Shown in pieces: positions 17,339-55,257 of a DNA stretch of 64,000 bases. Made by a program: the position numbers and the translations under genes. Source of the stretch: a virus (lineage: Duplodnaviria > Caudoviricetes); IMG/VR virus record IMGVR_UViG_3300033559_000026, positions 4,399 to 68,398 of that record. One strand, written 5' to 3'. The notes beneath the pieces were generated by a model that ran no database searches, was not told where the DNA came from, and was given only the letters and a program-made list of their open reading frames with translations. Each line of letters opens with the position of its first letter. Positions within the stretch are counted from its first letter, which is position 1.

Positions 17339-17369
17339 CATCCATCATCTCACAAGACTTATCGCGTAG

Positions 17370-17436
17370 AAACTTGACTTTCCAGGGTTCCGTTTATTGT
17401 TCCTGCTAATACTATTTATATAAGTATTATAGCAGG
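17370..17436 (-). ncRNA. Structured leader element, copy F (5' half only)
   Basis: CCTGCTA..TATAAATA(17413-20)..TAGCAGGAACAATAA-ACGGAACCCTGGAA-AGTCAAGTTT, then homology stops. Confidence 0.7.
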
Positions 17437-17448
17437 TTTTCAGTTATT

Positions 17449-17796: not shown

Positions 17797-18303
17797 GTGT
17801 ATGATTGTAGGGGTTGGGGTTGCGATGTCAAGCGGGAACAATCGCAAGCGTGTACTTGCGGCGAACCATCTTCTGATCCTCCCAGCCAGCCACATTGATC
17901 GCCTTGGACAGTCGCTTGAGTGACACACCGCCGTTGTAGAGGGTGTCAGCCTCGGTCATCATGGCATCGTAGAGCGCCTGCCGCCGCCGTTCCTCAACCT
18001 TGCGGGGGTTCTTCTCACCCTCGCAGGAGTTTGGGTAGGTCATGCAGTAGCCTTCATAGGCATTGATGCAGCAGCAGAGGTCGGTGAGGCGGGTGGTTGA
18101 GAGCTTGGAAGGCATGGGGTTCCTTGGTTGAGCGTATAGCTTACAGGGTTTCATCCAGCAGTCAAGCGGGAGTTTTGCGCCCACTCCAGCGGAAGGGCTT
18201 GCCGTAGAGCTTGGTCCAGCGCCCGTCGAAGCCATCACACTCGTCGGTCGCCTGTGTGTGACGCACCGGTTTCTTCTTGACTTGTTTGCGCTTGGTTCGC
18301 ATG

Positions 18304-18558
18304 TCAGTAGCCCTTCTGCTTGTAGCCGATAGCCGTGTCGATGTTGACCGCACGGGTGGTGAACTCGTCGCCCGGAGTCAACCACCAGTTCTGACCGTAG
18401 TCGAGGCAGACCTTCTCGGTGCCCGTGTAGCGGACACGGTACTCGGAGCCGAGCCAGCCAGCCGCCTCGTCGTTCTGTGAGAGGATTTCGACAGCGACCG
18501 CCTTGCCCATGTTCATGGTGAAGGTCTTGGTGCCGATGGGGAGCTTGTTGGTGTTCAT
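18304..18558 (-). CDS. Hypothetical protein, leaderless
   Basis: TTGACA/TACGAT promoter. Confidence 0.65.
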   Translation of the reverse strand: MNTNKLPIGTKTFTMNMGKAVAVEILSQNDEAAGWLGSEYRVRYTGTEKVCLDYGQNWWLTPGDEFTTRAVNIDTAIGYKQKGY

Positions 18559-18588
18559 GTCAGTATCGTACAGGGTTTCAGCCGAATG

Positions 18589-18798
18589 TCAACCGCAATC
18601 CGTCCACTCCTGGGGATGCTCATAGGCACGGGTCCACTTGCCACCGGGGCTGCGGAAGCTGGAAGCCTTGAGGAAGCCGCCAACCCCATTCACAATGGGG
18701 TCAGTCAGCAGGAGGATCTGTCGGGTGCCGTCAGCGTGACGGATGCAGAGGGTGCGGGGGGTGACGGAGTAGGAGCGAGCGTCGGTCATGAGGGTCAT
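18589..18798 (-). CDS. Hypothetical protein
   Basis: Most upstream clear gene of the minus-strand arm. Confidence 0.55.
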   Translation of the reverse strand: MTLMTDARSYSVTPRTLCIRHADGTRQILLLTDPIVNGVGGFLKASSFRSPGGKWTRAYEHPQEWTDCG

Positions 18799-19056
18799 TA
18801 AAGGAACGGCAAGCCACAGTCAAGCGGCAGCTTTGGCACGCTTCCTGCGGTCGCCGCTGTATCACACAGATTCATATTGACACCATACCAGTCGCTTGTA
18901 GGTTTCTCCCCCTCACTACAATATGAGCATACGGAAGCGATAACCCAACGGCAGCCGCCGCGAGGTCCGAGGGTGGGGATATGGACCGGTGAGTGTATCA
19001 CACACCAGAAAAGACTTGACAGGTTTCCGCTGGAAGCCGCTCCCCCGTTGCGTATC

Positions 19057-19667
19057 ATGTCACTATGACCATACTCCCATCGTGTCGTGTTTCGCAACAT
19101 CTCTGCCGTTTCGGCTGATGTTTTTCACAACATCTTTTTGACACGCTGAAAACTTTATATATGGGTCAAACTGACATACTTTTGAGGCACCATGTCATTC
19201 TGACCCAAGACAGATTGGCTATGTCGTTTTGACCCTGTGGAAAACTTTTTCCGTCTTGCCGTTGGTATGAACCCCTATGTCGTTTTGACCCGGATCTGTC
19301 TTGCCTGTGTTTTCAGCAACTTACAGCAACTTGGCTCTACCCTGGAGCCTCCCACATGAGTATACCCGAGCGGCTTAGAGAAGCAATAGGGCGGCTCGGC
19401 ATAGCTACTCCCAGCGGCTCACACACCCCTTCCAACCCCTATACGCTGGAGGTATATCATGTCATAGTGACCCGTGTCCGATAATACTGATTGTGTCATT
19501 AGGGGCGGGAAGCTGTAAGTGAAGGTGCGGCGTATGCGTGTGACGTATGGCTCGGGGTAAAAACAGATGCGGCAAGGGAATACAAGCAGCTTTAAGCGGC
19601 TCTTGAGTTACGGGTTCGCACAGACCCTATGAAGCTACTTGGCGGCGGCTCTATGTCAGATTGACAA
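19057..19667. repeat. Seven dispersed palindromic ATGTC(A/G)-N3-TGAC(C) boxes
   Basis: Copies at 19057, 19163 (reverse), 19192, 19221, 19277, 19459, 19653. Confidence 0.75.
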
Positions 19668-19865
19668 ACCGACTAGGGCGGCGAAGGAGGGGCGGCGAAA
19701 TCTACTTGCCATTTTCTCAGGGCGGCGGGTGAAAGGCGGCGAGTGACACAGAGCAGACGGCACAGGAAAGGCGGCGATTGCAAGGCGGCGGGGAGCAGCT
19801 ACAATAGAGGTTGATATAAACCCCTATGGGCGGCAGATACAAGGCGGCGGAATAGCTGCGGCGGT
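19640..19865 (+). repeat. Cluster of about ten RGGCGGC motifs
   Basis: Direct reading of 19640-19865. Confidence 0.65.
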
Positions 19866-20081
19866 TCCAGCAATGTTTTTTTCGTTGTGTCTCGTGGCAG
19901 AAAGCTATATGTAAGTATCGTGAAGCAGCTATAAGTTTCTACCATTTTCTTGACATACTATAAATAGGAAATATACTATCGTCTTATTTTTTCATTCACA
20001 GAGCAGCTACAAAGTGGCTCACAAGCCCCTCTCCCCAGCTTCCCCCACTCCGAAAGCACCCGAAAGCAGCTTTAAGCTCCT

Positions 20082-21715: not shown

Positions 21716-23917
21716 ATGAGAGGGTTCCTTGAGTTCTTGCATGAAGGCGTTGAGCCTAAGAAGCCGGTTGGGAAACTTGTCAAGAAGACGGTGATGAAGA
21801 ACCGGGGAACCGTTCATGAGAAGCCACTGACGCAGATAGGGTTCGTAACGACCGCAGGTAATGATGTCAAGGTTCAGTTCAGCATACGGGAAGGAGAGGG
21901 TGACATTGTTTTTTATGTCAACGATACGCTGGATGACCGTGGCGGTAGAGACTCGGGGGTTGTTGATCCTGAGATTCTAAGTGGTGTTCTATGGGTTGTT
22001 GATAAGTATTCTGACACCATGAAGCTTCACACCATTACATTTAGCGCATGGGCTGGTGAGGGTGACAACAAGATAGTGAAAGGTCTTGACACGGGAAAGC
22101 CTCGTGAAGCGGCTCTGAGTAGCCTGAGAGACTACATGAAGGATGTAGAATCGTATGAAGCTACCATTATACCTCCGAGCGAAGGGCGCATAGCTTTGGC
22201 TAAGAAGCTGGGGCGTGAGCCTACGGTGGTTTACGATGTCAATGTTCATCACCTGTTTGGAATACTACGAGAGATGCTGTACGCTCTGGAAGATGAAAGT
22301 ATAGTTGCAACAGTTCCGTTCGAAGAGGAACTATACAAATCCAGAAACACCGCTCCGAAGACAGACAGTGATGACATACTTGACTTTGCATCATACAACA
22401 CTCTGGAGGATTTGATACCAGGGGGTAAGAATGTGCTGGAGTTACTGAGAAAGTATAATACAGCCAAACTTAGTAACACTGAATCCGGAGCCTCGGTGAA
22501 CAGAAACCGTAGGCAAGACCTGTATAAGCGTCTGATAGATAAGTTCTTTAGCGATAAGTGGAATGTAGAGCAGAGGCGTGATAGCTTTACATTGACCCGT
22601 AAAGAGGAAAAAGCAATAGCCATGGGAGAAGACGTTGTGGCTCCTGTGAAAAAGCCAGCAGCATCATATTCGGTTGAGCAGCTTATGTTTGCTATGTTTG
22701 ACGAGAGCTTCCGTGAGTATGGGCAGTATTACATACCGTTGTTCAGTCATGTCATAAAAAAGATATTCGGTGACATTCAGGGGTATGGCTGGCACCTGAC
22801 GGGGCATGAGAACCTTGAGCGTCTGAAGTCTATTCAGGGAACCAACAAGTCGATTAGCACGCTGCACAGGAAAGACATAGCCAACGTTATGGACCGTGGT
22901 GTTGCTTCCAAGGCTGACATTGCGGTTCTGGTTCGTGGTAACGTGCTGCTGAAGTATGATATCAATGCCTGGACCGTGGTTGACGAGAATGGAAACCGTT
23001 GGGTGCCTGTGGTATCCATGAAGACGGGTAAAGCCATTGGGCGTGACATTGAGGCGCTACAGGTTGCCTATGTCAGAAAGCTGAACCTTCTGGCTCACGA
23101 CTTGGATTTGGGAAGCTGGAGTGATGTTCATGAGAAGTATGATAGGCTTGACGAAGGCTCGAAAAAGAAACTTCTGGCAAACTTTGTCAAGAGTATGGAG
23201 GCGTTCGTATTGGAGAACTCGGAAAGCATCAAGGAGAATATCTGGTCTGCCATTGATGTAAGCGAGAAAGCCATGGATGAGGTTGAAACCGGCTTCAATG
23301 AGATTGTCATAAGCGACTTTGAGATTGTCAAGGTTGTTCCAATTGAAACATTCAGAGAGAACCGTAGCGTCAGTGATATGATGAATGAGATGCCTGCGTG
23401 GAACGATGGAGATAAAAACATATCAAAGTATATGGGAGACAAAACCCGCCAGTGGACGATGGAGCGATACAAGGGCTATGAAATACTTGAAGAGTTCCCT
23501 ATTGGTGACTTGAGTGCCATCGTGTTCCGTAACAGGGAGCAGAATATGCTCAACGTTCATGTCATAGATACCAATGATAAAGAAGTGGGAGCCTTCAACT
23601 GGTATAAAGAAGGTCGAAAGCCATGGGCTACAACATCAGCAGCGGTTGCAGTTGCGCACCAAGGTAAAGGAATGGCTTATATTGTCTACACTCATATGAT
23701 TGACAAGTATATGCATACGCTCATGTCAGACCAAACTCTGACAGGCGAGAAAGACGGAAAGGGATCGTTTGACCTATGGGTAAAGCTTGGTAAGAAGTAT
23801 CCATTCAAGTATGTCTATAACTCTTCGAGTCGCAGATACCGTCAGGTTCAGGAGTTTACTCGTGACATGATGGATGACGAGGTTGAAAGGTTTGTAATAT
23901 CGCAGTATGAGATATAA
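21716..23917 (+). CDS. Large hypothetical protein; capsid-targeting-like N-terminus, GNAT-like C-terminus
   Basis: MRGFLEFLHE; AVAVAHQGKGMA acetyl-CoA-binding-like motif. Confidence 0.5.
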   Translation: MRGFLEFLHEGVEPKKPVGKLVKKTVMKNRGTVHEKPLTQIGFVTTAGNDVKVQFSIREGEGDIVFYVNDTLDDRGGRDSGVVDPEILSGVLWVVDKYSDTMKLHTITFSAWAGEGDNKIVKGLDTGKPREAALSSLRDYMKDVESYEATIIPPSEGRIALAKKLGREPTVVYDVNVHHLFGILREMLYALEDESIVATVPFEEELYKSRNTAPKTDSDDILDFASYNTLEDLIPGGKNVLELLRKYNTAKLSNTESGASVNRNRRQDLYKRLIDKFFSDKWNVEQRRDSFTLTRKEEKAIAMGEDVVAPVKKPAASYSVEQLMFAMFDESFREYGQYYIPLFSHVIKKIFGDIQGYGWHLTGHENLERLKSIQGTNKSISTLHRKDIANVMDRGVASKADIAVLVRGNVLLKYDINAWTVVDENGNRWVPVVSMKTGKAIGRDIEALQVAYVRKLNLLAHDLDLGSWSDVHEKYDRLDEGSKKKLLANFVKSMEAFVLENSESIKENIWSAIDVSEKAMDEVETGFNEIVISDFEIVKVVPIETFRENRSVSDMMNEMPAWNDGDKNISKYMGDKTRQWTMERYKGYEILEEFPIGDLSAIVFRNREQNMLNVHVIDTNDKEVGAFNWYKEGRKPWATTSAAVAVAHQGKGMAYIVYTHMIDKYMHTLMSDQTLTGEKDGKGSFDLWVKLGKKYPFKYVYNSSSRRYRQVQEFTRDMMDDEVERFVISQYEI

Positions 23918-32592: not shown

Positions 32593-32650
32593 ACAGTATA
32601 TACCCTATTTAGATTATTGCGAAACTCTATTTATGTAATAAAATACAGCC

Positions 32651-35600
32651 ATGGATGACTATACCAAGCAACTTGAGAGAACCGTAGCCGAGTTGAAAGA
32701 CCGTTACGAGAACTATGTTGTTCAGCTTGAGGAAACGGTGGAACACCTGAAATCAAAGCTTATGGCTGAAATGAACGCCAATGCCACATGGTATAGTGAC
32801 ATTGATGACAGCACCCGTGAAGTTCTCAGGTCAAGGCTTATTGTTGGGTGTGTGGTCTTTGCGGAGGTCAGACGGGTGAAGAAAGGCAAAGATTGGGTGT
32901 GGAATGGTCATATACTTGACGCCACACCAGACTGTAAAGGGTATGGGTATGTGAAGATAGTTCGACATGAGCCTAACTTCAACGAGGCTATGCGTCGAAT
33001 AAATAAACTGTTAGCCTTGGATAGCTACAAGAAAGCGGATGAGATACCTTCTATGGATGCACTATGAGTTATATCAAACAGCTTGAAGAGGCTAATGAGA
33101 AGCTAATGAAGTCTCTTGAGAGGGAGTCTATGCTTCGAGAGATTGAAACAAATAGACATAAGAGATGGTATAGGGTTGAAATACACCACATACACAATGT
33201 ACACTTGGCAAGAGCATCCGCCAGTAATCTATGCCCGAGGTTTCCGGAACCCCTTGACGAAGTTATGCACCTATATGTCGTTCCTGGGATAGCTGCTGCG
33301 AGGGCTATTATATTGTCACGCCTACTCATGCGACAGCGTGATGATGGGAGCTTGCTTGGCGCTGGGGTATCGTGGAGTGTATACATTGAATCCACGGTAT
33401 ACCCGAATGGAAGCTGGAATCCATCATTACTACTACGAAAAGGCTGGATAGTAAATAGTATTCAGTATCCTGGGTGGGGAGGAAGCCTTGTAAACTATTG
33501 GAATACGGATAGTGACTCACCAATACCAACCAGATACAAGAACTACGGAGAGTATGCCAGATTCGTTATGGATTGCCATACAGCAAAAACGGGGAAGTAA
33601 TGATAGACCGCACTAAACAACTTGAAGAAGAAAACAAGAAGCTACAGGAGTTGCTTGATGCTGCTGTCAAGCAAGCAGATTCACTTCAGAAAGAAGTAGA
33701 TGACAGATTAGATGTCTCTGGTAAAATTGAAAAGTTAGTAATAGATGATATGATAAGCCAAATGGATACCGACTTCCTCAAGGCGGTAAATAAAGTTTAC
33801 TCATACCACCATGGATATATAAAATGAGCGACGAATATACACAACAGCTTGAAGAAACCAACGAGAAGCTTCGTAAGCGTCTGGAAGAGGAAACGACCAG
33901 GGCGGATAAGCTTCAGGGTGAGCTTGATAAGTTGAAGTATAAAGATGATAGAAAGATAGCAACTAACAATGGAGTCGTTCGGGGCGATAAGGCAGATGAT
34001 CTTATGAAGAAGTGGGAGAAACTTTTTAGACAGGCTTCTGACCCTAAAGTGAAATTCTAATGAAATCCTACACCGAAGAACTCGAAGCACAGATAGAAGC
34101 ACTCAAGGAAGCCTTGACTGTTGAAAGAGCTACCATTGACTTCATGAATAATCGTAAAGACTCGCAGACCTATAGGAGATGGAGTATACGCAAAACCTGT
34201 GACTACAAGATTACCCAATCGTGTCTAAAGTCATTACCACATACGGTAACTGATTACGTTGAGACATGCTGGCAAACCCTTGAGGATGCTCGTAACTTCT
34301 TACGTCTCTATCTTGATGAAGTTGAAGAAATCAATCCCAAATTCCTCACTAAAGTAGCTGCTACGAAATATGCTAAAGCTGAGTCATTCTGGCAATCTAT
34401 CATGACTCACATCGTCATCGAACTATACGACCAGAGAAAAGATAGAGTTGTGTTTCATAAGGCATTCACCATAGAGCAGACATATAGCTACAGCGACCAT
34501 AAGGTAGTAACAACTCTACTTGACTTGGAGCCATGTCGAATACAAGTCGTGGATGAATTGTTCCTACACGCCCTATCCGAAGGCTGTGATTATCTAAATA
34601 AGTGGCAGGCAATCATGGATTCTCGTAAGCTCATGTTCAACGACCCTGAAGTGGAGGATGACGATGGAACCCTATGAAATGGAACAGAAGAACAAACGCA
34701 TTCGTGAGTTGATAGACCTTATAGACAATGACCTTGACAAAGGGAATGACTGGTTCGACTACGTTCCAGAGATTGCCACACTCTGTCTCGACATGGATGA
34801 AGAGACGCATGACCCCGAGTATAAAGAGATACTGGCAAGCATTCTTGGAGCCATAGATTCGGTGCTTGTGAGCAGTATAAAAGTATGTAGAATCGAAAAT
34901 AAAGAGAAGCTGAACATACTCAGATTGAAGGTCATGAACCACTGTAAGAGATTGGGTCATTGAATAATCTGAGATGACTCTATAATCCTACATAAATACC
35001 ACATCGGAGGATTATATGACTATCATAAACGAATCACGCAAAGAGGTATGGGAATACTTCAGCAAGCACATAGCCCCGCTTATTCGCATTGGCGTATCGG
35101 AGTCTGACGTTGAGTGTTCATTGAAGAACACCTTCAATGGCAAGTACAAGTATATTGTTCGCAAGTATAAGGATACCATTCGTATCTCAGCCAACCTTCT
35201 GTCAAATGGAGTTATATTCTATATGGCTGAGACAAAGCAGGGTAAGGAAGATAAAGAGTTTATAGAACCTTCATATGGCTGGCGCAAAGTCTCTAAGTAA
35301 TACTACTATTGATTCATTAGTGATAGTGGTATAATAGACTTATGAGTTCTGAATATGAAAAGACCCTTGAGGATGAGAATGCCCGACTGCATGCCGAGCT
35401 TGAAGAGTTGAGGAAGCTCATATATGACTTGGCACCACGACTCGAAAAGGTATTCACTGATATGGCTAAGGATGTTCATAGCATAAACAATGGATACTTC
35501 GAGCGTGGGCAAGGGTGTCTTTCGCTTCTTCGTAAGATTGAAACAGAGCGCAAGTATATAACCAAGGAGTTCTTCTCCAAATGAAAAGCTACACCAAGAC

Positions 35601-36156
35601 GGTCGAAGAAGAGAATGACAAGCTTCGTGAGAAAATCTTGGATCTTGACAACGAGCTTGAGAAAGCACACGACATACTAAGAAACGAAGCGGCTGCCATT
35701 ACCGTAACTCTGAGATACAGCCTGTCAGACTTCTTTACCGATTATAGCACCGATATGCTTATGAGCGTAAAGGATGAAGACGATGCTCTCTGTGAAGTTC
35801 TGAATCACTTCGAGACAAAGGTTCATAAGAGTGGTGAGCATGCCTGGGAACTTATTCAACCTGAAAGAGTTAGAAAGGTATCACCAGATGTCAAGCCAAC
35901 GTGGACGCTTGACTACTGGCTCTACGGCATGCGATTCAATTGGGCGAAGATTCAGCTTCACAAGAAGAAGAAACACTTCTTCAAGATATACTCTTCTCAC
36001 TATGATATGCGTAATAACTTCAGGTGGGGGCTGGAAGAATGGGAAAAGCAAAAGATGCTCGACGCAATCAAGCCTTCGACATACCTAAAGTCAAGATTGT
36101 ATCTCTATATAAACGAGAGCAGCACACTAAAGCCGATGTTTACACCACATAAGTAA
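32651..36156 (+). CDS. YxKQLEE N-terminal family, block 1 (32651, 33064, 33600, 33824, 34060, 34664 weak, 35342, 35581) plus 35016-35300
   Basis: Shared N-terminal coiled-coil-like motif, different C-termini. Confidence 0.8.
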
Positions 36157-36184
36157 ACTATAAATAAGCGTTGGAGGGAGACTT

Positions 36185-37033
36185 ATGAAGACTCTTGCGC
36201 TAAATGGTGGTGGAACATCCGGTTACATGACAGCACTTCTGCTGGCTCGACTTGAGAAAGAGCTTGGTGGTAAGCATAGATGCTGCGAGCTATTCGACAT
36301 GATCGGTGGAGTATCAACTGGCGCAATCATTGGTGCGCTGCTCGCCAAGGGTCTGACAGCCGAGGAAGTCGTTCAGAAGTATGAAGAGTTCATTCCTGTC
36401 ATATTCAGCAACAAGCGTCTTCTACCACTCTGGAAGTCATGGTACAAGCGTGATGCGTATGAGAAGATATGCCACGAGAACCTGAACTTCGACATCAAGG
36501 ATAGCAAGACCAGATTCGTTGGGTATGCTACCTGTATCAGCCCACCCGAAATGAAGCCAAAGTTCTGGAAGTCGTGGAGAGATTCTATACCAGCCTACAA
36601 GGTGGCTCTCGCTTCGTCGGCTGCCCCCGTATTCTTCGATCCATATGAGATTGACGGTAAGTATTACATTGATGGTGGGTTGGCTTGTAATAACCCTTCT
36701 CTCTGTGTTATAACCGATGCCCTGAAGCTGGGGGCTGACGTTGATACCATATTCAATCTAAACATATCGTGTGATAAGCACGGTGGTTACAATAATGCTC
36801 GTAAGATGAAGGGTGTTATTCACTGGCTCAGTAAGCTGCCCTCCACGTTCCTTTATGCCGGTGCTGGCACAGAAAACTATATTGCTTCGACACTTATCAA
36901 GGGTCACTATGTTATTCAGCCAGGAGTCTCATTCAACATGGATAGCACCGACCTTGGTGCCATGCGCAGAGTTGCTGAGATGGTTTGGAACGAACATGGG
37001 TATAATCTTATAAAGAACTTGGAGATAGCATGA
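36185..37033 (+). CDS. Patatin-like phospholipase
   Basis: GGGTSG, GVSTG nucleophile, DGG; late promoter at 36159. Confidence 0.9.
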   Translation: MKTLALNGGGTSGYMTALLLARLEKELGGKHRCCELFDMIGGVSTGAIIGALLAKGLTAEEVVQKYEEFIPVIFSNKRLLPLWKSWYKRDAYEKICHENLNFDIKDSKTRFVGYATCISPPEMKPKFWKSWRDSIPAYKVALASSAAPVFFDPYEIDGKYYIDGGLACNNPSLCVITDALKLGADVDTIFNLNISCDKHGGYNNARKMKGVIHWLSKLPSTFLYAGAGTENYIASTLIKGHYVIQPGVSFNMDSTDLGAMRRVAEMVWNEHGYNLIKNLEIA

Positions 37034-37764
37034 AAGATTGGGGAAGGAAGTTTATAGAGTCGGGAACGATGAATGCGTTCAAGGCTACCTTCACGGAGTC
37101 AGAAGGAGTAAAGTATGTTTTTTTTGATTTTGATGACACCGTTAGAGAATCTGTAAACTACGGTGATGATAGTGGACCGCCCGTAGAGATTGGGCAGGTT
37201 CGAGTGTTCCCAGGCATGGGTAAAGCCATACAGCAGTGGATAAAGAACGGATACAAAGTCGTTGGAGCAACCAACCAAAAGGGTTCTCTTAGACGCCGTG
37301 AGTTCGTTCCTGCCGAGCAGAGAGCCAGCGCAACGCTTGAAGACGCTGCACAAGGATGTGGAGCAATCATACAGGAAACTCTTGACCAGCTTGGTGTCAG
37401 CTTCCCTGTTTTGTTTACGTCGGATAGCACAGTCTTCATATACAACGGTGGAAGCGTGTCAGTTGGTGGAACCTTCGGAACCGAAGACAAGAAGGGTGGT
37501 AAAGCACCGAAGCCAAGCCCAGCCATGGGTCAGGTTGCCTTCAAGTTGTTTGGCACTCCCGACTTGGAGAATTCGTTGATGGTTGGTGACTCGTTTGAGA
37601 ATGGCGATGAGATGTTCGCAAATGCTATTGGTGTCAAGTGGATTCATCCAGGCAAGCTTGGAAGAGACTTCATTGAGTTCACCAATCAGAAGTTTAGCGA
37701 AGAGATGGAAGAAGAATCTGGAACAATACTCCAGCCGAACTTCTATAACACTCACGGGTATTGA
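37030..37764 (+). CDS. HAD-family phosphatase (GmhB/PNK-3'-phosphatase-like)
   Basis: FFDFDDT, ATNQKG, PKPSPAM, MVGD. Confidence 0.8.
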   Translation: MKDWGRKFIESGTMNAFKATFTESEGVKYVFFDFDDTVRESVNYGDDSGPPVEIGQVRVFPGMGKAIQQWIKNGYKVVGATNQKGSLRRREFVPAEQRASATLEDAAQGCGAIIQETLDQLGVSFPVLFTSDSTVFIYNGGSVSVGGTFGTEDKKGGKAPKPSPAMGQVAFKLFGTPDLENSLMVGDSFENGDEMFANAIGVKWIHPGKLGRDFIEFTNQKFSEEMEEESGTILQPNFYNTHGY

Positions 37765-37811
37765 AATAATCTGCCGAGGGGTATAATAAGTCTTACAAGG
37801 AGACTAAGTTT

Positions 37812-38150
37812 ATGCCCAAGCGCGGACAAGATGAGAACGAAGAGAAGCAGATGAAGCCAAAGCAAATCGCCAGAATCGTTCTGGATGTATTTGACAACGG
37901 CTATGTGGATCGTACACTCAAAGAGTATTACACCAACGAGGAAACCAAGAAGAAGAAGACCTTCGACCATGACAAGGCTTCTGAGTTCATGAAGCTCTTC
38001 AAGGAAACACTCTCCGAGCAGCCCGAATACTTCGTAGCAATCGAATTGCTCAAGGCGCTCGACATCAATCCAAAGAACTTCTCACTCAACGTTCAGAAGA
38101 ACTACAAGGATGACATCACTCAAGCACCAGAGAAGACTGAAGAAGCCTGA
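37812..38150 (+). CDS. Hypothetical protein
   Basis: ORF after a TATAAT-containing promoter. Confidence 0.65.
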   Translation: MPKRGQDENEEKQMKPKQIARIVLDVFDNGYVDRTLKEYYTNEETKKKKTFDHDKASEFMKLFKETLSEQPEYFVAIELLKALDINPKNFSLNVQKNYKDDITQAPEKTEEA

Positions 38151-38178
38151 ACAAACTATAAGTTTGACTATGAGACTG

Positions 38179-38212
38179 AAACACCTACCCTAATCGGTAG
38201 GTGTTTCTCTTT
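38179..38212 (+). terminator. Intrinsic terminator
   Basis: AAACACCTACC-CTAATC-GGTAGGTGTTT-CTCTTT. Confidence 0.7.
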
Positions 38213-38237
38213 ATAGAGACTTGGGTATACTGAACAC

Positions 38238-41200
38238 ATGACCGACTATACCCAGCAGCTCGAAGAAGAGAATGAGCGTCTGAAACAGAAGCTTGACGAA
38301 ACTGTTGCCAAGTATGATGATCTTTATAATAACAAAGATAATCTTAGAGAAAGAATACGAGAGATTGATATTGAGAAATACGCGCAGCCGATTGGGGTTC
38401 CTGCAAAATATGCTGGAATATCTCCGGAAGCTTTACAAGACTTCCAAAACATGCATGGAGTATTCTCTTATAAAACCATAGCCAAGTCACTTGGTATTGA
38501 TGAGGCTGAGATTGACAAGCTAATGAAAGAACACTTCAATGCAGAATGAATACACTCAGCAGCTTGAAGACACTATCGAATCGCTCCATAAGAAGCTTGA
38601 AGAAGTTTCATACTTCAAGCCGATGTGGTGTCAAGAGATTATTCCTGGGAGGGGAAATGGTAAGCAGTGGGTTCTCCAACTCCAGGGGAATCCGGTTAGT
38701 GAGATGTATAAAAAGAAAGTGTTGGGTTATAAAGGGGGAACACCTAAGCAGCGTTCACGGTGGGCTAATGCTACTATTGAAAAGGAAATTATATGTGTCG
38801 TGAAATTTACGGGTGATAATAGATGCGTTCCTTATATATTCGGAAAGGAACTTGAATGGCAGCCTGACTTTGATACTTGTAAGAAGTATGTCAACCGTAT
38901 TGTATTCGGGGTCGATACCATATGAACCAAGAAGAATACATCAAGCAGCTTGAAGAGACTAACCGACAGCTTACGGAGAAGCTGGAGAAGTCTGAGATAA
39001 ACCACGAGGTCTTCTTAGAAAGACCCGTGTATATCTATTGCTCTAAGAGTGAAACTGACCATGTTACACAAACACACTACGAAGTGTTTGACCATATATC
39101 GTTCAAGAACGAAAATGGCGATACGCGCACCACCGTCAGATATGTGACGAAGATGAAAGAAGTGGAGACGGTAAACGCTGAGATGGGCTTCAACCCCGTA
39201 AATTACGAGCATAAGGAGACATGGAATGAGAAGAAGCAAGAATGGGAGGGAAGACCTGAAATCGACCTTCATATAACCTCGCAGTTTGTTACCTCCACGT
39301 CGAGAAGCATGCCGATGAGCGTAAGGTGGACAACCAACTTCATGAATGACTTCGTAAATACCCAAGACCTGTCTGATGTTCTTGTGAATGGCGTTGCCGA
39401 AGACATGAACAAGGCTGCTGACGAATATACAGAAGAGATAGTGAAGTCTATTGTAAAGCCAAATCTGGATGAGTGTGGAAGACTGGTGAGGAAGCCTACC
39501 AAGAAGGAGGTTGCCAAATACACCAAGAAAGCGAAGAGCCGTGGAAGAAAATGATTACTGCGCCCGTGTAGAAGCTGAGAATACAGCGTTGCGAAATGAG
39601 TTGGAGAGACAATCCAAGAAGTGTGGCGAGGTTGAAAGACTTTATGCTGCTGAAAAGGGTGTCGGGGATTCATTGCGAAAGATGGTAGTGGATAGAGATG
39701 CTACCATAAACATCCTGCGTGACCGTCTAAGACGTGTGGAGGAAGATAATGCCCCATTCTGATTACATAAAACAGCTTGAATCTGATAACTGGCACTTCA
39801 AGTGCGAGGCAGAGCGGCTATCGGATCGTATTGAATGGCTTGAGAGTCTTCAGACAAGAAGAGCCAATACGAATTGGGCTGTGGTCAAGACATGGAAGCG
39901 TAAAATAAACAAAACCATATTCCACGAGGGAACCAACATCACCAGACTCAGCAAGGCTGAGAAGAAGTATCTGAGTGTAAATGAAATACTGGCAGTATGC
40001 TCAAACGACAAAATGAGTTATGCTCATATAGGTGACAAGTCTGATGTGCGAAATGCTATTACCGACCTGAATACGGATATACTGAAAACATATGGGCATG
40101 CCTATAGTGTTCTTCGTGAAAAAAAGGAATTCAAGAATATAGAATCCATTGCGTTTAGTGTTCACACCACAGTAGAAATGTATCTGGATGCGGTAGAACA
40201 TAATACAAGATTCTTCAAGGTTATCTTTGCACAGGTTCGGCTTGCCAAGAATAAAAAAGGTGTAATACAAACGAAGGTTCAGTGTACCGATAAGAAGTTT
40301 ATGGGAATCTATAATACACTAAAGTACCTTCCCGGTATGACTAAGAGCATGGAAGACAACAATGGAAGACTGGTATCATTGGATGCAATATGAAGATAAA
40401 GCAATACATTGTCTTACGCCACGGAATAAGCCCAGCCCTCGCCTGTATTGGTGTTGGGCATGGGGTTCTCGCAGCGTATCTCAAATGGAAGGATGAACAG
40501 ATTGTCAAGGATTGGGTTGGTGGTAACTTCGGACCATTTTATAAGGTTGTGTGTCAAGCCGAAAGTTACGCACAGTGGGAAGCCATAAAGAACTGGAAGG
40601 AAGAGAAGATTGTTATAACGGAGAGTAGCGTTGACAACATGGAAATAGCTGTTATATTCAAGCCAGTTATCCACTCAAAGTCACTCCTATTCAATGAGCT
40701 AAAACTATATGGCTGAATCTACTATAGACACCGAATACGTCAAGCAGCTTGAGGAAACCGTTGAGGTTCTAACTACTCATTTTGATAAAGATGTTCGATA
40801 CGGTCATTGGGTTGACAGGCATGTTGACAACGATAAGAAGAAGACTATTATTAGGTCTGACCTACGGGTGTTGGGTGTTGTGCTTGCCTATGTCGTTCAC
40901 AAAGACGGGCGTTGGATGGCATATCACCTTCACCGCATAGATACAAAGAAGTTCAGCGGGTATGAGTTCGGACGCCTCCACGGTAGGCGTGGGTACTATG
41001 AGAGTATTGACGAGGCGAAAACCACAGCGTTGAGAGCAATCCGATGAGCCAAGAAGACTACATCAAGCAGCTTGAACAAGAAGTCGAAGCTCTCAAGAAG
41101 AAGCTGGAAGAGAAGGCTATTGAGGAAGCTCCGCCAACCGACGTAAGAGGTATTCGCAATATCCATCAGATAAGCGAAGACATGTCGTTGGTTGTTACCA

Positions 41201-42219
41201 ATGTCGATAACAAGGTCATATGCAAGCTTGTCAAGGCGGATCGCAACAAGTATAACGGGCTTCTCATCATCAAGATGAAGATACAGGTTGGGTGGATATT
41301 CAAGAGTTGGGAATATAAAGAAATGCAAGGCTGGTTCGATGATTGGGTTGCATATCCAGTTACCTTGGGATCTGAATCCAGCGACAAGCGTGGTGGTCTT
41401 CTAAGTGATAAACAGATTAGATACGCTAACGGATACTTCCGTATGTTGGAAACTGTAGGTCTTATAGCAAGAAATGACAAGAAGGTTGGTATGCCATGAA
41501 CGACGAATACATCAAACAACTCGAAGAGACGAATGCCAAGCAGGCAGCTATTATAGAAAACTTGAGGAATGTCAATGATGAGCTTGTGGAAACACATAAT
41601 AAGCTTGTCAAGGAGTATAACGAAGTAGCTGGCATGATGAACGCGTGTGGCGTCAAGCAGACAACCGGTGAAGGTGGTGAAAGAACTGGATGGGCGCTCA
41701 CTATGCAGATAGGTGGTATACCGGATCCCCACACCCCGTTGAAAGAGAAGGGTATAGATACGAACATTGTCATCGCACCTGTCAAGCAGGATGGTGACAA
41801 GGTTGTATGGGGTGCTGTCAGTGGCAAATAAAGAATATACCAAGCAGCTTGAGGATTCTCATGAAGCCCTCCAGAAGAAGCTTGAGGATACTCAGGCGAA
41901 GCTTCAGGAGATGGCTCTGAGCCACCTGCACATGCGTAGGATTATTGACCTCATGCGTAAGTCTTATATAGACATGAAGACTGAGACAGACGATTACCGT
42001 TACTGGACCAAGGCTGCCATGGTTGACACGCTCATGGGATTGGATAGGAATGCTACTAAAAACTTGGGCAGTGTGCCAGCAGAACATAACGACAAATACC
42101 AAGAAGAATACGATAAACACCAAAAAGGATACCAAAAAGAGTTTGGAATGACTCTTGACGATAATATGAAGTTCATAAGGGAATGTTTTACCGTTCCAGA
42201 GTATAACTCAATATTATAA
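38238..42219 (+). CDS. YxKQLEE N-terminal family, block 2 (38238, 38539, 38922, 39541, 39749, 40709, 41044, 41496, 41821)
   Basis: Shared N-terminal motif; translationally coupled. Confidence 0.8.
40390..40716 (+). CDS. Peptidyl-tRNA hydrolase PTH2-like protein
   Basis: QYIVLR...GHGVLAAYL..W..GPF.KVVC..VITES...IAVIFKP. Confidence 0.6.
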   Translation: MKIKQYIVLRHGISPALACIGVGHGVLAAYLKWKDEQIVKDWVGGNFGPFYKVVCQAESYAQWEAIKNWKEEKIVITESSVDNMEIAVIFKPVIHSKSLLFNELKLYG

Positions 42220-42244
42220 ATATAGACATTGAAGGAGAACTCCA

Positions 42245-43213
42245 ATGTCATCGGAAATACGAAATAGAATACTCGAATCACTCGGCATGATAAACGAGAG
42301 CGTTTACGATAAGCTCAAGTTCAAGGCTGTGTTCATGGCTGGTGGTCCTGGCTCTGGCAAGTCGTTTGTCATTGAGAAGGCATTCCCCGACGCAGCCCTT
42401 GGAACCGATGAGGGTGGTAACGAGATGTACCAAGGTGGTGGTAAGTGGAAGGTAGTTAATTCCGACCATATGTTTGTTCGTGGATTGGTTCAGGCATACC
42501 TTCCACTCAAGGTAGCTCAGAAGGATGACCCTGTTACATTTGGCATGCAGCAGAATGTTCGCAATGTTGGCAAGGGGCTTCAGAAGCTACGCAACCTCAA
42601 CTGGCTCAACGGTATGCTTCCTGTCATTCTTGATGGAACCTGTAAGCATGCGGGATCCACTCTCAAGGTCAAGCAGATGCTTGAAGAGCTTGGATATGAC
42701 ACCTACATGATATTCGTTGATACTGATGTTGAAACTGCTGTTCAGAGAAACGCAACCAGAACTCGAAGCGTTCCAGAGGATCTGGTTCGCAAGGTCAATG
42801 CGGAAGTAAAGGCAAACAAAGATACGTTTGCACAGGCATTTGGAGAGAACTTCTTCTACGCCAACAACTCGCAGGATTGGAGAGCCAAGGATGCCGCTGG
42901 AAAGGCTGTCAAGAAGGCTGGAACTGACATAACAGGAAAGCCAACCTCTGAAGTTCAGTTGGCACCCGAAGGTCAGGCATTCGTTGCTGGATTGCAGAAG
43001 TTTGGTCGTAAGGTAGAGAATCCAAAGATAATGAATCCAAAGGGTCAAGAGATTGTAAAGACTCTTGAAGCCAAGGGTGGAGCATATTTGGCAGACTACT
43101 ACGCTCCTGGCGAGCAACAGGGCAAGTCTGGAAGTTCTTCAGACACCATCAGTAGTAAGATTGGTCATGATGTAAAGACACCACAGGGAAGTAAGAAGGG
43201 CGTTGATCTATGA
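42245..43213 (+). CDS. P-loop kinase, zeta-toxin/AAA_33-like
   Basis: KAVFMAGGPGSGKS, VNSD, ILDGT, AVQRNATR.RSVP; late promoter. Confidence 0.8.
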   Translation: MSSEIRNRILESLGMINESVYDKLKFKAVFMAGGPGSGKSFVIEKAFPDAALGTDEGGNEMYQGGGKWKVVNSDHMFVRGLVQAYLPLKVAQKDDPVTFGMQQNVRNVGKGLQKLRNLNWLNGMLPVILDGTCKHAGSTLKVKQMLEELGYDTYMIFVDTDVETAVQRNATRTRSVPEDLVRKVNAEVKANKDTFAQAFGENFFYANNSQDWRAKDAAGKAVKKAGTDITGKPTSEVQLAPEGQAFVAGLQKFGRKVENPKIMNPKGQEIVKTLEAKGGAYLADYYAPGEQQGKSGSSSDTISSKIGHDVKTPQGSKKGVDL

Positions 43214-44555: not shown

Positions 44556-45675
44556 GTCGTTCTTCGAATCATTTAGAGAAAACGCGTATGTTATGGATTT
44601 GGACGATACTTTGTTCACTTCCGATGCTAAAGTTGTTGTTTACAAGGCGGAAGGGGAAGCTATTGAGTTGACACCTTCTCAATTCAACACTTATCAAAAA
44701 CATCCAGATGATAAGATGGACTTCTCTCAGTTTGAAGATCCAGAGTTATTCCTGAGAACAGCAAAACCAACCAAATATTTAAAAGTAGCTCAAAATATAT
44801 CCAAAGCAGCAAGAAGTGGATCCAGCAACGCAAAACTCTACATTCTAACTGCAAGAAACTCTTCCATAAAAAACGCTATTACACAAAAACTCTCAAGTTT
44901 AGGTGTGATGATTGACGGGTTCTTCTCGTCGGGTGATACTGACGCTCCAACTATAGCTGAAGGTAAGAAACAGATACTTGAAAAGATTCGTTCTATGCAT
45001 AAGGGACGAATAACTTTTTTCGATGACGATGAGAAGAACATAGCCCTCGCCAAACAGATTCCGGGGATTCATGTTCGCATGGTGTCTCGTGAAAGTATTG
45101 ATAGATTGGCTGAGTCGTGGGATGATGAAGAGTCTGGTGGAGATAGAGACTCGCTATTCATGAACCATATCAGCGGAGTTAGAGAAGCTGCCCGTAGAAT
45201 GGGAATAGATGCTGACTCCGTTAGACTCATCAACACCCGCCAGAACATCAAGTCAGCCAAAGAAATCATAGATGTATCGGGTGGTAAGTATCAATGGTAT
45301 GCTATTGGATTGTCGTGGATAGAGTGGATGCAGAGTGAGATGCCTCAATGGCTGTCTCCTTTTACATATGCCATTGAGATAGATAAGCCACTTATGATAA
45401 CACCTAAGAACATCGCAGCATTCCAGAAGAAGTATATTGTTAATCCGGAACAAGTGAAGGATAAGGCAATCAACTGGAAGAAGCTCTATACTGATAAGGT
45501 TGGAGCTATTGAGTTCAATCCATACGATAAGAGTAGTGTTGACTTAGGCTCTTCATTTTGGTATTATTCTATTGACGTTGACAGTGGAGCAATCGTCAAC
45601 AAGAGCAGCGTGAAGAAGATAGTCAAGTTATACGACGGAACAGATGACTTCAGAGACATGGGGATAAAGATATGA
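44545..45675 (+). CDS. HAD-like N-terminal domain plus unknown C-terminal domain
   Basis: MKFKSFFES; VMDLDDTLF, ILTAR, FFDDDEKNI. Confidence 0.65.
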   Translation: MKFKSFFESFRENAYVMDLDDTLFTSDAKVVVYKAEGEAIELTPSQFNTYQKHPDDKMDFSQFEDPELFLRTAKPTKYLKVAQNISKAARSGSSNAKLYILTARNSSIKNAITQKLSSLGVMIDGFFSSGDTDAPTIAEGKKQILEKIRSMHKGRITFFDDDEKNIALAKQIPGIHVRMVSRESIDRLAESWDDEESGGDRDSLFMNHISGVREAARRMGIDADSVRLINTRQNIKSAKEIIDVSGGKYQWYAIGLSWIEWMQSEMPQWLSPFTYAIEIDKPLMITPKNIAAFQKKYIVNPEQVKDKAINWKKLYTDKVGAIEFNPYDKSSVDLGSSFWYYSIDVDSGAIVNKSSVKKIVKLYDGTDDFRDMGIKI

Positions 45676-46244
45676 TAAGGGATGAAACATATAAGATACT
45701 TCGAGAAAAGTGGCAAAGACTTCAATGTACGAAGAGTAATATAATCCTTGAAAAGAAAGGCGACGCGTCTTTTTGTTATATGTTATATATTGATGTAAAA
45801 GACGAAGAAAAATTCATTCAGATGCAGAAAGATTTGCAACTCGGCGGTGAACTTATTGAATCTGGAAAGTTTCATGCTACAGTTAGATATATAAAAAACT
45901 TTACCGACTACCAGCCATTGGTTAGTTACTTAAAGGAAATAGATTTGCCGATTATAGAAGGAAAGACTAATGGATTTGGAATATACGGAAAGGAAAATGA
46001 TACTTTAGTTGTAGAACTGGAAGGAAAAGATTTACATGAATGGTTTGAAAAAATAGACAATTGGCTTGTTGATAATGGATACCCAAAATCGGAGTATCCT
46101 ACATACAAGCCACATATTTCGCTTACCGAACAAAAAGGAATAGAAAAACCAAAGTGGAAAAAAGAATACGAATTTAAAGTAAAGTTCTCACTTCATGTCA
46201 TCAGTGATAGCAATTATGAAGAAGTTTATAGAGAAAAAATCTAA
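45672..46244 (+). CDS. 2H phosphoesterase, T4 gp57B/Acb1-like
   Basis: KFHATVRY, TLVVEL, YKPHISL. Confidence 0.65.
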   Translation: MIRDETYKILREKWQRLQCTKSNIILEKKGDASFCYMLYIDVKDEEKFIQMQKDLQLGGELIESGKFHATVRYIKNFTDYQPLVSYLKEIDLPIIEGKTNGFGIYGKENDTLVVELEGKDLHEWFEKIDNWLVDNGYPKSEYPTYKPHISLTEQKGIEKPKWKKEYEFKVKFSLHVISDSNYEEVYREKI

Positions 46245-46265: not shown

Positions 46266-46625
46266 ATGAAAAACGACAAGACATACAAGAAACTCGAAGA
46301 GAACTGGAAGAAGCTGGAGGAAGGTATGATGCCCCCGATGTTTGCATTCAACGCAGGCGCACAACTAGCCGCATCAAATGCCGGTAGACAACTTGCAGAC
46401 ATAGAGAATGAACGCTTGAATGGTCCGGCTTTAACTCCTGAAGTAGTATCACATGGTATTAGTAGATTTGTAAAGGTGTATGGTAGAAACCCACAACCGA
46501 ATAGAGAAGATGCGGATAATGTTGGAATTTTTATAAATGAGGTTCGTCCTAATAATGCTTTGTTTGGAAATAAAAGAATAGAGTTGGGAATGAATGCTAT
46601 AAAGATGAGTCAGGGGAACGTATAA
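46266..46625 (+). CDS. Hypothetical protein
   Basis: ORF with RBS. Confidence 0.65.
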   Translation: MKNDKTYKKLEENWKKLEEGMMPPMFAFNAGAQLAASNAGRQLADIENERLNGPALTPEVVSHGISRFVKVYGRNPQPNREDADNVGIFINEVRPNNALFGNKRIELGMNAIKMSQGNV

Positions 46626-48703: not shown

Positions 48704-48782
48704 CTATTTGTCTAAAGAAGAAAGATAAATACATTATGTTAATGTAATAGTGAGTTCTTAGACAATTAGAAGGAGAGTTGAC

Positions 48783-49178
48783 ATGGCAAATAGCTATGAA
48801 CGAGAACTTGAGTTCGTCAACGAAACCCTAAAGGAAAAGCTGGAGGAAAAAGAAGCCTTATTAGCCGATATAGATGCCTACTACAAAGAAAGAGAAATAC
48901 GATTCAAGAATGTGTTGTTTGAGTCTCTTCAGCATCTATACTCTTTGTCAAGTGGTATTCATCGCATGCAGCTTGAAACGACAGCCATGCATAATGAAAA
49001 CTCAAAGTATAGAAAGAATCCAAAGCTGATGGAAGAAGAAACGAGCAAGATTGGTGTTCGTTATATAAAGAACTTCCTCCAGTATGCAAAGGAAAATGGA
49101 GTCGAGAAGAACGACCCCATCGTTGTCAAAGAACTTGAGACGATGATAAAAAAGATATGTACTGAAGACGCTGATTGA
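48783..49178 (+). CDS. YxKQLEE-family outlier (MANSYERELEFVNETLKEKLEE)
   Basis: N-terminal motif match. Confidence 0.7.
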   Translation: MANSYERELEFVNETLKEKLEEKEALLADIDAYYKEREIRFKNVLFESLQHLYSLSSGIHRMQLETTAMHNENSKYRKNPKLMEEETSKIGVRYIKNFLQYAKENGVEKNDPIVVKELETMIKKICTEDAD

Positions 49179-53955: not shown

Positions 53956-55257
53956 ATGGATTCAAGAGACTTCCGCAAGCAGTGGCAAAAACTTCAGGAA
54001 TCATGGAATTCCGAAGACACTGAACTGAACATCAACTCCACCAAGGCTGAGAAGCTTGAAGAGAAGCGCAAGCTCCCCGATGCTCTCAAGGCTCACCAGT
54101 TCGGCAAGAAGACCGATGGTAAGACACCTGAGAAGGGTGAGACAAAGAAGCATGAAGATGCTGAAACACCTGAACAGGAAAAGAAGGAAGATAAGAAGGA
54201 TGACAAGAAGCCTTCGTTCCTCAAGAAGAAGGCTACTGAAAAGCGTAAGAGCATGGCTCTCCGCTCAGATGGTAAGCTATCAAAGGTTGGTAAGGGAGTA
54301 CCTGGGAAGACACTGTATGGCGGTCCATCAACATGGAAAAAGAACACAGCCAAAGCTACCGAAGATGTCGCTGGTAATGCAGCCGCAGCAGGCGCTTCTA
54401 ATGGATCAACAACATCAACCTCGGTTGGTGCTGCTAAGGGAACCTGCCCCGACGCTCGCGTTGGCTCACCTGTTGCCCAGCCAGAGAGATTGAAGAAGCA
54501 GGCTAAGGAAAGCAAGCTCTTCTCGCACTTCAGAAAGTATATGTCTGAAGCTGGTCTTCCAATCGAAGCTCCAATTCAAGACCCAGCAGCCGATCCTACC
54601 CTTGCAGGAGATTCGGGTGCGTTCGCTGAATTGACTGGTGAAGAACCAGCCGTTGACCCAGCCCTCGGCGCTGAAGCACCTGTCGATGATGCCGCTGCTC
54701 TCGTTGCTGATATCAAGGCTCGCTTCCCAACCGCAAAGATTCGTATCTGCGTTGAGACTGAGCCTACCGCTCCTTTCACTGCTGAAGATGTAGCTGCTGC
54801 TGAAGCTGCTATTGCCGCAGTTCCAGAGGAAGTTGAAGGGGCTGAAGAGCTTGGTGGAGAACTCGGGGCTGATGAACTTGATGGCGCTGAAATGCCAGTT
54901 GATCAAGACATCGCTGACGAAGTTAGAATTGAGTCTTGCTCCATGAGAGAAGACGAAGGCGAAGACATGGGCGCTGCTGATGGAGTCGAAGAGATTCCAA
55001 CAGGAGACGAGATGGGTGCGGAGGGTGGAGAAGAAGCCCTCGGTGGAGAGCTTGGCGCTGAAGTTGAAGGTAGCGCATCGGAAGCTTCGCCAGAAGCTAT
55101 CTCCATGACACCAGAACAGTGGCTCGAATTCCTTGCCGCTGGAACAGAAACCGGAACTGACGAACTCGACCCCGAGCTTGGCGCTGCTGATGCAGAAGCC
55201 GGGGAGGGTGAAGACTCTGATTCAGAGTCGAACAAAAGTGAAGATCAAATCGGCTAG
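53956..55257 (+). CDS. Late low-complexity protein (basic N-half, very acidic C-half), possibly head-associated
   Basis: TATAAATA at 53926; many L/I-x-E sites. Confidence 0.55.
   Translation: MDSRDFRKQWQKLQESWNSEDTELNINSTKAEKLEEKRKLPDALKAHQFGKKTDGKTPEKGETKKHEDAETPEQEKKEDKKDDKKPSFLKKKATEKRKSMALRSDGKLSKVGKGVPGKTLYGGPSTWKKNTAKATEDVAGNAAAAGASNGSTTSTSVGAAKGTCPDARVGSPVAQPERLKKQAKESKLFSHFRKYMSEAGLPIEAPIQDPAADPTLAGDSGAFAELTGEEPAVDPALGAEAPVDDAAALVADIKARFPTAKIRICVETEPTAPFTAEDVAAAEAAIAAVPEEVEGAEELGGELGADELDGAEMPVDQDIADEVRIESCSMREDEGEDMGAADGVEEIPTGDEMGAEGGEEALGGELGAEVEGSASEASPEAISMTPEQWLEFLAAGTETGTDELDPELGAADAEAGEGEDSDSESNKSEDQIG

Follow-up and report, generated by a model that had tools for sequence, protein, structure and literature searches.

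One of the closest described counterparts of the element considered here is the capsid-targeting sequence (CTS) of bacteriophage T4, an N-terminal tag 10-19 residues long, in which residues 4 and 7 are responsible for targeting and residues 8 and 10 for processing, the cut falling after L/I-x-E (PMC9026906). The internal proteins of T-even phages form a diverse defence-countering set with only this tag in common (PMC3012670), and their bodies were described as unrelated, fast-evolving and polymorphic (PMC3012670, PMC4122927). In the T4 record, IPII and IPIII begin with M-K-T-Y-Q-E-F-I-A-E, the 19-residue leader of IPI ends with I-T-E, and only an early-type promoter is present upstream of ipI. 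The DNA analysed here, called the window, is a stretch of 64,000 nucleotides (nt) of a virus of the class Caudoviricetes (positions 4,399 to 68,398 of the IMG/VR record IMGVR_UViG_3300033559_000026), in which two arrays of small genes encode proteins with one and the same N-terminal module.

Parallel dimeric leucine zippers, namely bZIP/GCN4, the cortexillin trigger site and FosW, share with this module Leu/Ile/Val in a and d, one a position held by Asn, an L-E pair with charged, hydrophobic and charged residues after it, and opposite charges at g and e. The module differs from them in the fixed cap [D/E]-Y-x-K-Q and several fixed exposed residues, as well as in its place, always at the extreme N-terminus and on ORFan bodies, not on a basic DNA-binding region. 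The RecBCD inhibitor Gp5.9 of phage T7 is similar as an early, small, acidic phage protein on a parallel coiled-coil dimer; however, it is a single gene, and its coiled coil is itself the active DNA mimic, whereas here the helix would be a handle on many bodies. The zipper of IS66 transposases (Pfam DUF6444) is an N-terminal helix with a nearly identical consensus, but zinc-finger and transposase parts follow it, it belongs to bacterial mobile elements and not to phage arrays, and only the extreme tail of this large family is significant against the module profile.

Hyperplastic regions of T4-type phages, with their promoter-early stem-loop (PeSL) cassettes, are similar in arrangement. In both cases, blocks of small early ORFans lie between conserved genes, a composite of terminator and promoter stands before the array, and whole blocks are inserted or deleted between close relatives. 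In contrast to the PeSL regions, the repeated recombination-prone unit here lies within coding sequence, as it consists of the first 18 codons of every gene, and most array genes abut or overlap, with no intergenic cassette. The tentatively preferred reading of the module, to which a probability of about 0.45 is assigned, is a zipper handle on an early hypervariable library of effectors.

Occurrence of the module in two gene arrays

Two runs of abutting or overlapping small plus-strand genes are present at 32651-42219, and 16 genes of this region open with [D/E]-Y-[I/T/V]-K-Q-L-E-x-x-N-E-x-L-+-x-K-L-E, 2-9 residues past the initiator, with the module Tyr at residue 3-10 in 16/16 copies. Together with a degenerate copy in gene 34658 and two outliers, 48783 (plus strand) and 62405 (minus strand), the module is found in about 19 genes. 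One short N-terminal motif marks a large set of fast-turnover proteins in uncultured T4-type phages; at least 56 distinct clusters of module proteins, at 50% identity, are present in public data. Lengths of the module-bearing proteins of the arrays vary from 73 to 214 amino acids (aa), and genes 35016 and 40390 inside the arrays carry no module.

The strict pattern Y-x-[K/Q]-Q-L-E gave 11 matches in six frames, all on the plus strand at 32660-41836 and 2-9 residues after a start codon, and no matches in 20 shuffles of the sequence; a looser pattern additionally detected 33609, 34069, 35354, 35590 and 39556. When a profile of the 16 copies was compared with all six-frame open reading frames (ORFs) of the 68-kb record, every copy was recovered with E from 1e-11 to 1e-7, and the outliers were represented by ORF 61917-62456 on the minus strand (E 6e-4) and ORF 48762-49178 (E 0.08). 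By these searches, all the module starts listed in an earlier, sequence-only reading of this DNA were recovered, as were its outliers; its weak copy near 34664 is the degenerate gene 34658, retaining M-E-x-x-N-x-x-I-x-x-x-I-D. The shared N-terminal module described there stands, while some details need correction: genes 39541 and 41821 have GTG start codons, gene 33600 has Arg at the position of Tyr, and gene 32651 carries a double module.

A degenerate DNA motif pattern led to the 177-kb viral contig G001, which has the same kind of array and is syntenic with the window at 36-62 kb, with 35-64% protein identity. Array genes are not orthologous between the window and G001; orthologous arrays were found in three closer relatives, the contigs L031, L048 and L054. 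The arrays, the block between them and the outliers have the following features:

32617-32644, plus strand: sigma-70-like promoter TTGCGA-16-TAAAAT, with the -10 box ending 6 nt before ATG 32651 and no Shine-Dalgarno (SD) sequence
32651-33067, plus strand: module gene, 138 aa, with two tandem modules; L031 and L048 have orthologs at 34-36% identity
33064-33600, plus strand: module gene, 178 aa; predicted helix 3-31, then an alpha/beta body (AlphaFold)
33600-33827, plus strand: module gene, 75 aa, with Arg replacing Tyr
33824-34060, plus strand: module gene, 78 aa, almost entirely coiled coil
34060-34677, plus strand: module gene, 205 aa, with Ile instead of Asn at the a position
34658-34963, plus strand: degenerate module copy, 101 aa; orthologs at 37-39% identity
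35016-35300, plus strand: array gene without module, 94 aa; strong SD, 80-83% conserved in relatives
35330-35335, plus strand: extended -10 box TGG-TATAAT, ending 6 nt before ATG 35342
35342-35584, plus strand: module gene, 80 aa
35581-36156, plus strand: module gene, 191 aa, with M-K-S-Y start; 36% identity in a relative, against 86% for the adjacent patatin
36159-38150, plus strand: conserved late-promoter block separating the two arrays, with TATAAATA at 36159
36185-37033, plus strand: patatin-like phospholipase of this block
37030-37764, plus strand: 244-aa protein of this block
37812-38150, plus strand: 112-aa protein of this block
38178-38231, plus strand: terminator hairpin (38178-38207), then the -10-like TATACT (38226-38231), 6 nt before ATG 38238
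38238-38549, plus strand: module gene, 103 aa; C-terminus weakly helix-turn-helix-like
38539-38925, plus strand: module gene, 128 aa
38922-39554, plus strand: module gene, 210 aa; the body of its ortholog family holds a Gp23 segment
39541-39762, plus strand: module gene, 73 aa, GTG start
39749-40393, plus strand: module gene, 214 aa
40390-40716, plus strand: array gene without module, 108 aa; 89% conserved in L031
40709-41047, plus strand: module gene, 112 aa; the L031 ortholog has a double module
41044-41499, plus strand: module gene, 151 aa
41496-41831, plus strand: module gene, 111 aa
41821-42219, plus strand: module gene, 132 aa, GTG start
48783-49178, plus strand: outlier module gene, 131 aa; 93% in L030, 33% in G001, SD present
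61917-62405, minus strand: outlier module gene, 162 aa; conserved in G001, weak CARF-like match

The zipper-like helix and the T4 tag

The anatomy of the module was derived from 46 aligned copies, with position 1 at the Tyr, which is retained in 45/46. Information content is high at positions 0-18 and lies below 1 bit afterwards. The fraction of copies with a hydrophobic residue is 1.00 for position 5, 0.98 for position 12 and 0.89 for position 16; positions 2 (I/T/V), 5, 9, 12 and 16 show a strong heptad fit, weaker at 19, 23, 26 and 30. Position 9 is occupied by Asn in 33/46 copies, by Ile or Val in 12/46 and by His in 1/46, while position 8 is mainly E/T and position 13 mainly R/K. Aliphatic residues at a and d over at least three heptads and Asn at one a position were thus found, as in parallel dimeric zippers, and judging by the alignment the module is patterned like a two-stranded parallel zipper whose register is set by the Asn. 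The 'trigger' consensus of the cortexillin and GCN4 coiled coils is matched as well.

AlphaFold predicted a helix at residues 3-31 of the gene 33064 product and 3-32 of the gene 38922 product, with a predicted local distance difference test score (pLDDT) of about 81-86 over the first 20 residues. The best profile matches among sequences of solved structures are parallel dimeric zippers, namely, FosW (E 0.0045), a cortexillin/GCN4 hybrid and ATF-4, and the T7 Gp5.9 coiled-coil dimer is among the weak matches (E 0.14). The suggestion of a coiled coil in the sequence-only reading is therefore supported by the heptad pattern, the predicted helix and the zipper matches.

A search of 1.84 billion representative proteins with a profile of the 46 copies (32 columns, E <= 1e-3) gave 88 matches. 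In 60 of them, the match is a single stretch with Tyr at residue 3-14, in proteins of 40-242 aa; the remaining 28 are mostly repeat-rich coiled coils, significant through summed stretches, with single internal matches making up the balance. IS66-type transposases (DUF6444 and the IS66 zinc finger) contribute three N-termini to the 60, and these score like weak members. The sequence-only reading would have been refuted by generic coiled coils scoring similarly to the module in a hidden Markov model search, but they reach such scores only by repeat summing, and solved zippers reach at most 20 bits with the same profile against 33-48 bits for family members. As far as profiles can tell, the module has a zipper-like core, yet it defines a family of its own at the N-terminus, and could serve as a compact natural pairing module with measurable specificity. 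Pfam, PHROGs and NCBIfam gave only weak coiled-coil noise on the module genes, and no matches to the array region, the body of 35581 or gene 38238 were found in cultured phages. In four low-GC (guanine-cytosine) viral contigs (L005:4653, L008:1574, L012:203 and L013:3339), Y-I-K-Q-L-E-E-E-N was found at the C-terminal end of tiny Cys-rich proteins, a closely similar zipper start in another setting.

According to the preferred reading, the module would be the conserved start of an N-terminal amphipathic helix of about 30 residues, built like a parallel two-stranded leucine zipper, with a positions at I/T/V2, N/I/V9 and L16 and d positions at L5 and L12; Asn at a would set the register and the dimer state, and E/T8 would face R/K13. 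Through this helix, a library of small proteins, unrelated and quickly replaced, would share one handle for pairing or docking; they would be made early from sigma-70-type, largely leaderless operons in two hyperplastic arrays. At the structural level, such a zipper-like helix heading the members of a hypervariable early library as their shared handle is well supported. The bodies would act early, in the cytoplasm of the infected cell, as host-takeover or counter-defence effectors, and the module would be a sequence handle for finding candidate proteins of this kind among ORFans. Since the core and the exposed residues are the same in every copy, the handles should self-pair and cross-pair, or should all bind one partner. 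The shared 5' coding block may also be a common recombination joint for the swapping of bodies, which suggests a route to new phage genes, by new bodies placed behind a shared recombination-prone coding start.

A number of observations count against the zipper handle. Exposed residues at b, c and f should drift in a plain homodimer, yet Y1, K3, Q4, E6, E10 and E17 are nearly invariant; a simple self-pairing zipper does not need such residues, and they hint that all members share a partner. If about 19 zippers able to cross-pair are produced at the same time, most dimers would be mixed, a difficulty should the bodies have to be homodimeric. Nothing in a zipper calls for an N-terminal site, yet the module keeps strictly to it. 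Furthermore, N-terminal tags for head loading have a working precedent in this T4-like lineage, several bodies are pieces of capsid protein, and the codon bias at Leu5, described below, is not accounted for by a protein-level model.

The precedent of head-loading tags leads to another explanation, which is possible but doubtful, namely, that the module is a lineage-specific CTS: the helix would dock on the prohead scaffolding core, a T4-type protease would cut after Glu, and the bodies would be injected with the DNA. The machinery is present in the syntenic G001, which has genes for a T4-type prohead protease (35732-36430; Peptidase_S77, E 6e-35), a scaffold (36463-37569) and a Gp23 capsid protein (E 2.5e-95), the latter 35% identical to the capsid proteins of cyanophages and T4. 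Like the T4 tag, the module is a short shared N-terminal peptide on unrelated, fast-evolving, polymorphic small proteins of a T4-type phage, located within the first 10-19 residues (16/16 window copies and 60/88 library matches), with Tyr, an aliphatic residue four residues on, and then acidic residues. The spacing Y-x3-[I/L]-x-E is common to both, two members of the family begin with M-K-S-Y, and the sharp end of the strictly N-terminal module at residue 18 is near the 10-19 residues of T4. The regions of the T4 internal proteins are likewise hyperplastic, adjoining genes of RNA repair and counter-defence, and the early-type promoter of ipI also has its likeness here; the bodies with capsid fragments link the family to the head. 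A handle that did prove to load the head would constitute another capsid address, different in type from that of T4.

The residues that matter in T4, however, are only partly retained. The equivalent of Phe7, three residues after the Tyr, is Gln in 31/46 copies and is never aromatic, so that the targeting pair is incomplete. The putative P1 Glu at position 7 is present, as [L/I/V]5-x-E7, in 22/46 copies only; [L/I/V]16-x-E18 is present in 14/46 and either site in 31/46, while the invariant pair is L5-E6, not L-x-E, and in the 46 copies no small residue is favoured after the putative cut. The module profile has no significant match to the scaffold or the capsid propeptide of G001. Gene 21716-23917 (733 aa) of the window begins with a near-perfect T4-type tag, M-R-G-F-L-E-F-L-H-E, and G001:25132-26028 (298 aa) carries a looser one; the canonical signal therefore seems to survive separately in the lineage. 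The module also differs from the T4 tag in consisting of 18 residues with a coiled-coil extension, against 10-19 residues, in its heptad with Asn at a, and in its number, 16-20 copies per genome against three. Because the Phe7 equivalent and the late promoter of head genes are missing, the Glu is unconserved and 21716 carries a closer tag, the module is not filed as a CTS, though it may be a diverged or a second docking signal, and the specific head-packaging proposal of the sequence-only reading, set against sigma-70-type promoters, is not supported in its stated form.

Diversity of the bodies and capsid-protein segments

No significant similarity between the bodies of the window was found by blastp (best E 0.04), and hhalign on small alignments of orthologs gave at most 9% probability. 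When 50 members from four genomes were clustered, 38 body clusters were obtained, and the sole clusters were cross-genome ortholog pairs. Many bodies are 30-39% identical between relatives in which the adjacent patatin is 86% identical, while the helix is the best-conserved portion of the protein within ortholog families. Among 5.8 billion proteins, only four are close relatives of the gene 33064 body. The AlphaFold model of this protein (pLDDT 74.6) contains an alpha/beta domain after the helix; neither Foldseek (best E 0.13) nor VIA-align (best Z 4.6) detected a convincing match to this fold in the PDB, and viral models gave none either. The model of gene 38922 is poor beyond the helix (pLDDT 47), and the ESM Atlas gave nothing usable for the body of gene 39749. 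At the sensitivity available with blastp, hhalign and clustering, the C-termini are dissimilar, as had been claimed, and the cluster count, the turnover of bodies and the gain and loss of arrays are in agreement with a module on unrelated, interchangeable bodies.

Ordinary tandem paralogy, in which the C-terminal parts have diverged past recognition and the helix alone is constrained, appears very improbable. The genes do lie in tandem on one strand and are all small; a similar pattern after the helix can be seen by eye in 32651, 38539 and 40709, and one weak cross-match (E 2e-5) was obtained, which may be driven by the N-terminus. The spread of lengths from 73 to 214 aa, the absence of body similarity by blastp and hhalign, and the single confident body model without a fold match in the PDB or among viral models are at odds with it, and three different pieces of Gp23 show that some bodies are of other origin. 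The fold shared by ordinary paralogs, named in the sequence-only reading as what would refute it, is therefore not supported.

Pieces of the Gp23 major capsid protein, three in number and different from one another, were found in several module proteins of relatives. P0050, P0054 and P0075 exceed the Pfam threshold for Gp23 on profile positions 14-98 and align to residues 86-124 of the G001 capsid protein and 101-128 of T4 gp23. Residues 93-122 of T4 gp23, which we take to be the Gol peptide, overlap this piece. Gol, a stretch of 29 residues, is the most conserved part of gp23; it binds EF-Tu and triggers the Lit protease (PMC3014915). P0038 holds capsid residues 299-442 at 37% identity. The third piece, profile positions 128-183 of Gp23 (PF07068), is present in the ortholog family of gene 38922, in which P0092 gave 39.1, P0081 28.7 and P0021 24.9 bits at a Pfam gathering cut-off of 24.4 bits. 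The window protein 38922 itself gave no match to PF07068, and the family profile matched capsid proteins with 57% probability (E 1e-4). The loci tied to these bodies are 38922-39554 of the window, L054:4862-5401, P0038, P0050, P0054 and P0075; the capsid-fragment genes are located in arrays and not in head modules. In comparisons of the bodies with other large proteins of G001 or G000, including portal and terminase, no match was found, the capsid protein being the only one. Descent of the module itself from the capsid propeptide was considered and rejected: only 1.5 bits were obtained to L-E-Q-E-N in the N-terminus of the G001 capsid protein, and the scaffold was no better.

Bodies with capsid fragments may be decoys for capsid-sensing defence, poisons of assembly directed at rival phages, or components of the head. 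A bolder and unlikely proposal unites them with the rest of the family: the helix would serve as a second docking signal, specific to the lineage, with a single hub as its target and the prohead scaffold as the most attractive candidate for it, roughly a tenth of the genes would form a swappable library of effectors, either delivered or bound to the hub, and members with Gp23 pieces would be capsid mimics. In that case, the mimics would act as decoys for capsid-sensing immunity or as poisons of rival head assembly. The presence of capsid fragments was unexpected, and Lit, CapRel or other capsid-sensing defences offer a direct test of it in laboratory strains.

The outlier body 61917-62405, on the minus strand, gave a match to Card1 CARF with E 0.003, below the threshold, and might bind a cyclic-nucleotide signal. 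The array genes without module, 35016 and 40390, are 80-89% conserved, against 30-50% for their module-bearing neighbours, and could be constant partners of the library. A PTH2-like character of gene 40390, proposed by eye, was not supported by Pfam or PDB sequences.

Expression signals, codon usage and genome context

The first gene of each run has a sigma-70-type -10 box 5-6 nt upstream of ATG and no SD: TAAAAT before 32651, TGG-TATAAT before 35342 and TATACT before 38238, the last with a hairpin upstream. This layout of -10 box and ATG is kept in L031, L048 and L054, and the composite of hairpin and TATACT before 38238, which resembles a PeSL, is conserved in L031 and L054. The end of the -10 box 6 nt before ATG 32651, together with the lack of an SD, suggests that the first array starts on a leaderless early mRNA, and the array transcripts in general look leaderless and early. 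The motif TATAAATA precedes the portal, protease and scaffold genes of G001 and accordingly is the late promoter of the lineage. In the window, it was found before the patatin gene (36159), where the copy recurs in L031, L048 and L054, and before gene 42245 (42215); no copy was found upstream of the arrays, where only sigma-70-type -10 boxes are present.

Third codon positions of the module vary roughly as in the genome (Tyr: TAC 26, TAT 20; Asn: 18 and 18; Lys: AAG 24, AAA 11). The claim of protein-level selection made in the sequence-only reading is confirmed by this variation, with the residues fixed, apart from one codon: Leu5 is CTT in 36/43 copies, compared with 29% genome-wide. In seven loci of 32-44% GC (window 32651-42219, L031, L048, L054, L027, L050 and L049), CTT encodes Leu5 in 56/65 copies against a background of about 30%. 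Glu6 is GAA in about 80% of copies, and the other Leu positions of the module use mixed codons. An explanation at the RNA level alone was ruled out by the varying synonymous sites.

Part of these observations could be explained if the shared 5' segment were a cassette for building and expressing genes, enabling translation without an SD (leaderless or coupled) and serving as a recombination joint, with the helix merely tolerated. An SD core of at least 4 nt is present in 3/18 module genes compared with 17/28 other plus-strand genes, the array-leading genes are predicted to be leaderless, and the block is purine-rich. The codons of Leu5 and Glu6 are maintained across differing GC, exact matches between copies reach 18 nt, tandem duplicates of the module occur, and arrays come or go as a whole. 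Such a cassette nevertheless appears improbable as the whole explanation: most synonymous sites vary freely while the residues are fixed, substitutions obey coiled-coil chemistry (Asn to Ile/Val at 9; Ile/Thr/Val at 2), and the helix is the best-conserved part within ortholog families. Tandem duplication of the module inside single genes was observed in 32651-33067 of the window and in L031:12661-13101, whose window ortholog, 40709, has a single copy, which suggests unequal recombination between modules.

The record is a viral contig of 68.4 kb, with an estimated completeness of 32% and no head module, and is about a third of the genome of a distant phage of the T4 superfamily. The relatedness of the lineage to T4, implied by the earlier comparison with internal proteins, is evident from the synteny with G001 and its T4-type prohead protease and Gp23 capsid protein. 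The arrays flank the conserved block of patatin, 244-aa and 112-aa genes in the window, G001, L031, L048 and L054. In L030, with a patatin 86% identical, the 112-aa gene directly adjoins the ortholog of 42245, and the entire second array of ten genes is absent (L030:2594-4378 compared with window 37812-43213). A variable block of ORFans between conserved genes, with insertions and deletions, is thus present, as in hyperplastic regions. Two more T4-like contigs contain module genes, namely, four in one and at least ten in the other; GC is 32% in one, which has a T4_Y16D gene, and 37% in the other, with RNA ligase and rIIB. In all, arrays were found in lineages of 32-44% GC.

Positions 1-20000 of the window have about 55% GC, compared with about 44% elsewhere in the window, and contain TATAAATA six times on the minus strand. 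No long ORFs were found there under any stop-codon reading, and alternative readings of the ORF-poor first 24 kb were uninformative. A second N-terminal pattern, [Y/F]-[K/R]-x-[L/Q]-x-x-x-W-x-[K/R]-L, was observed in 45672-46244 (Acb1/57B-like), 46266-46625 (119 aa) and the late gene 53956-55257 (433 aa), and is similar to the N-terminal K-W-K-P stretch of Gp23-type capsid proteins.

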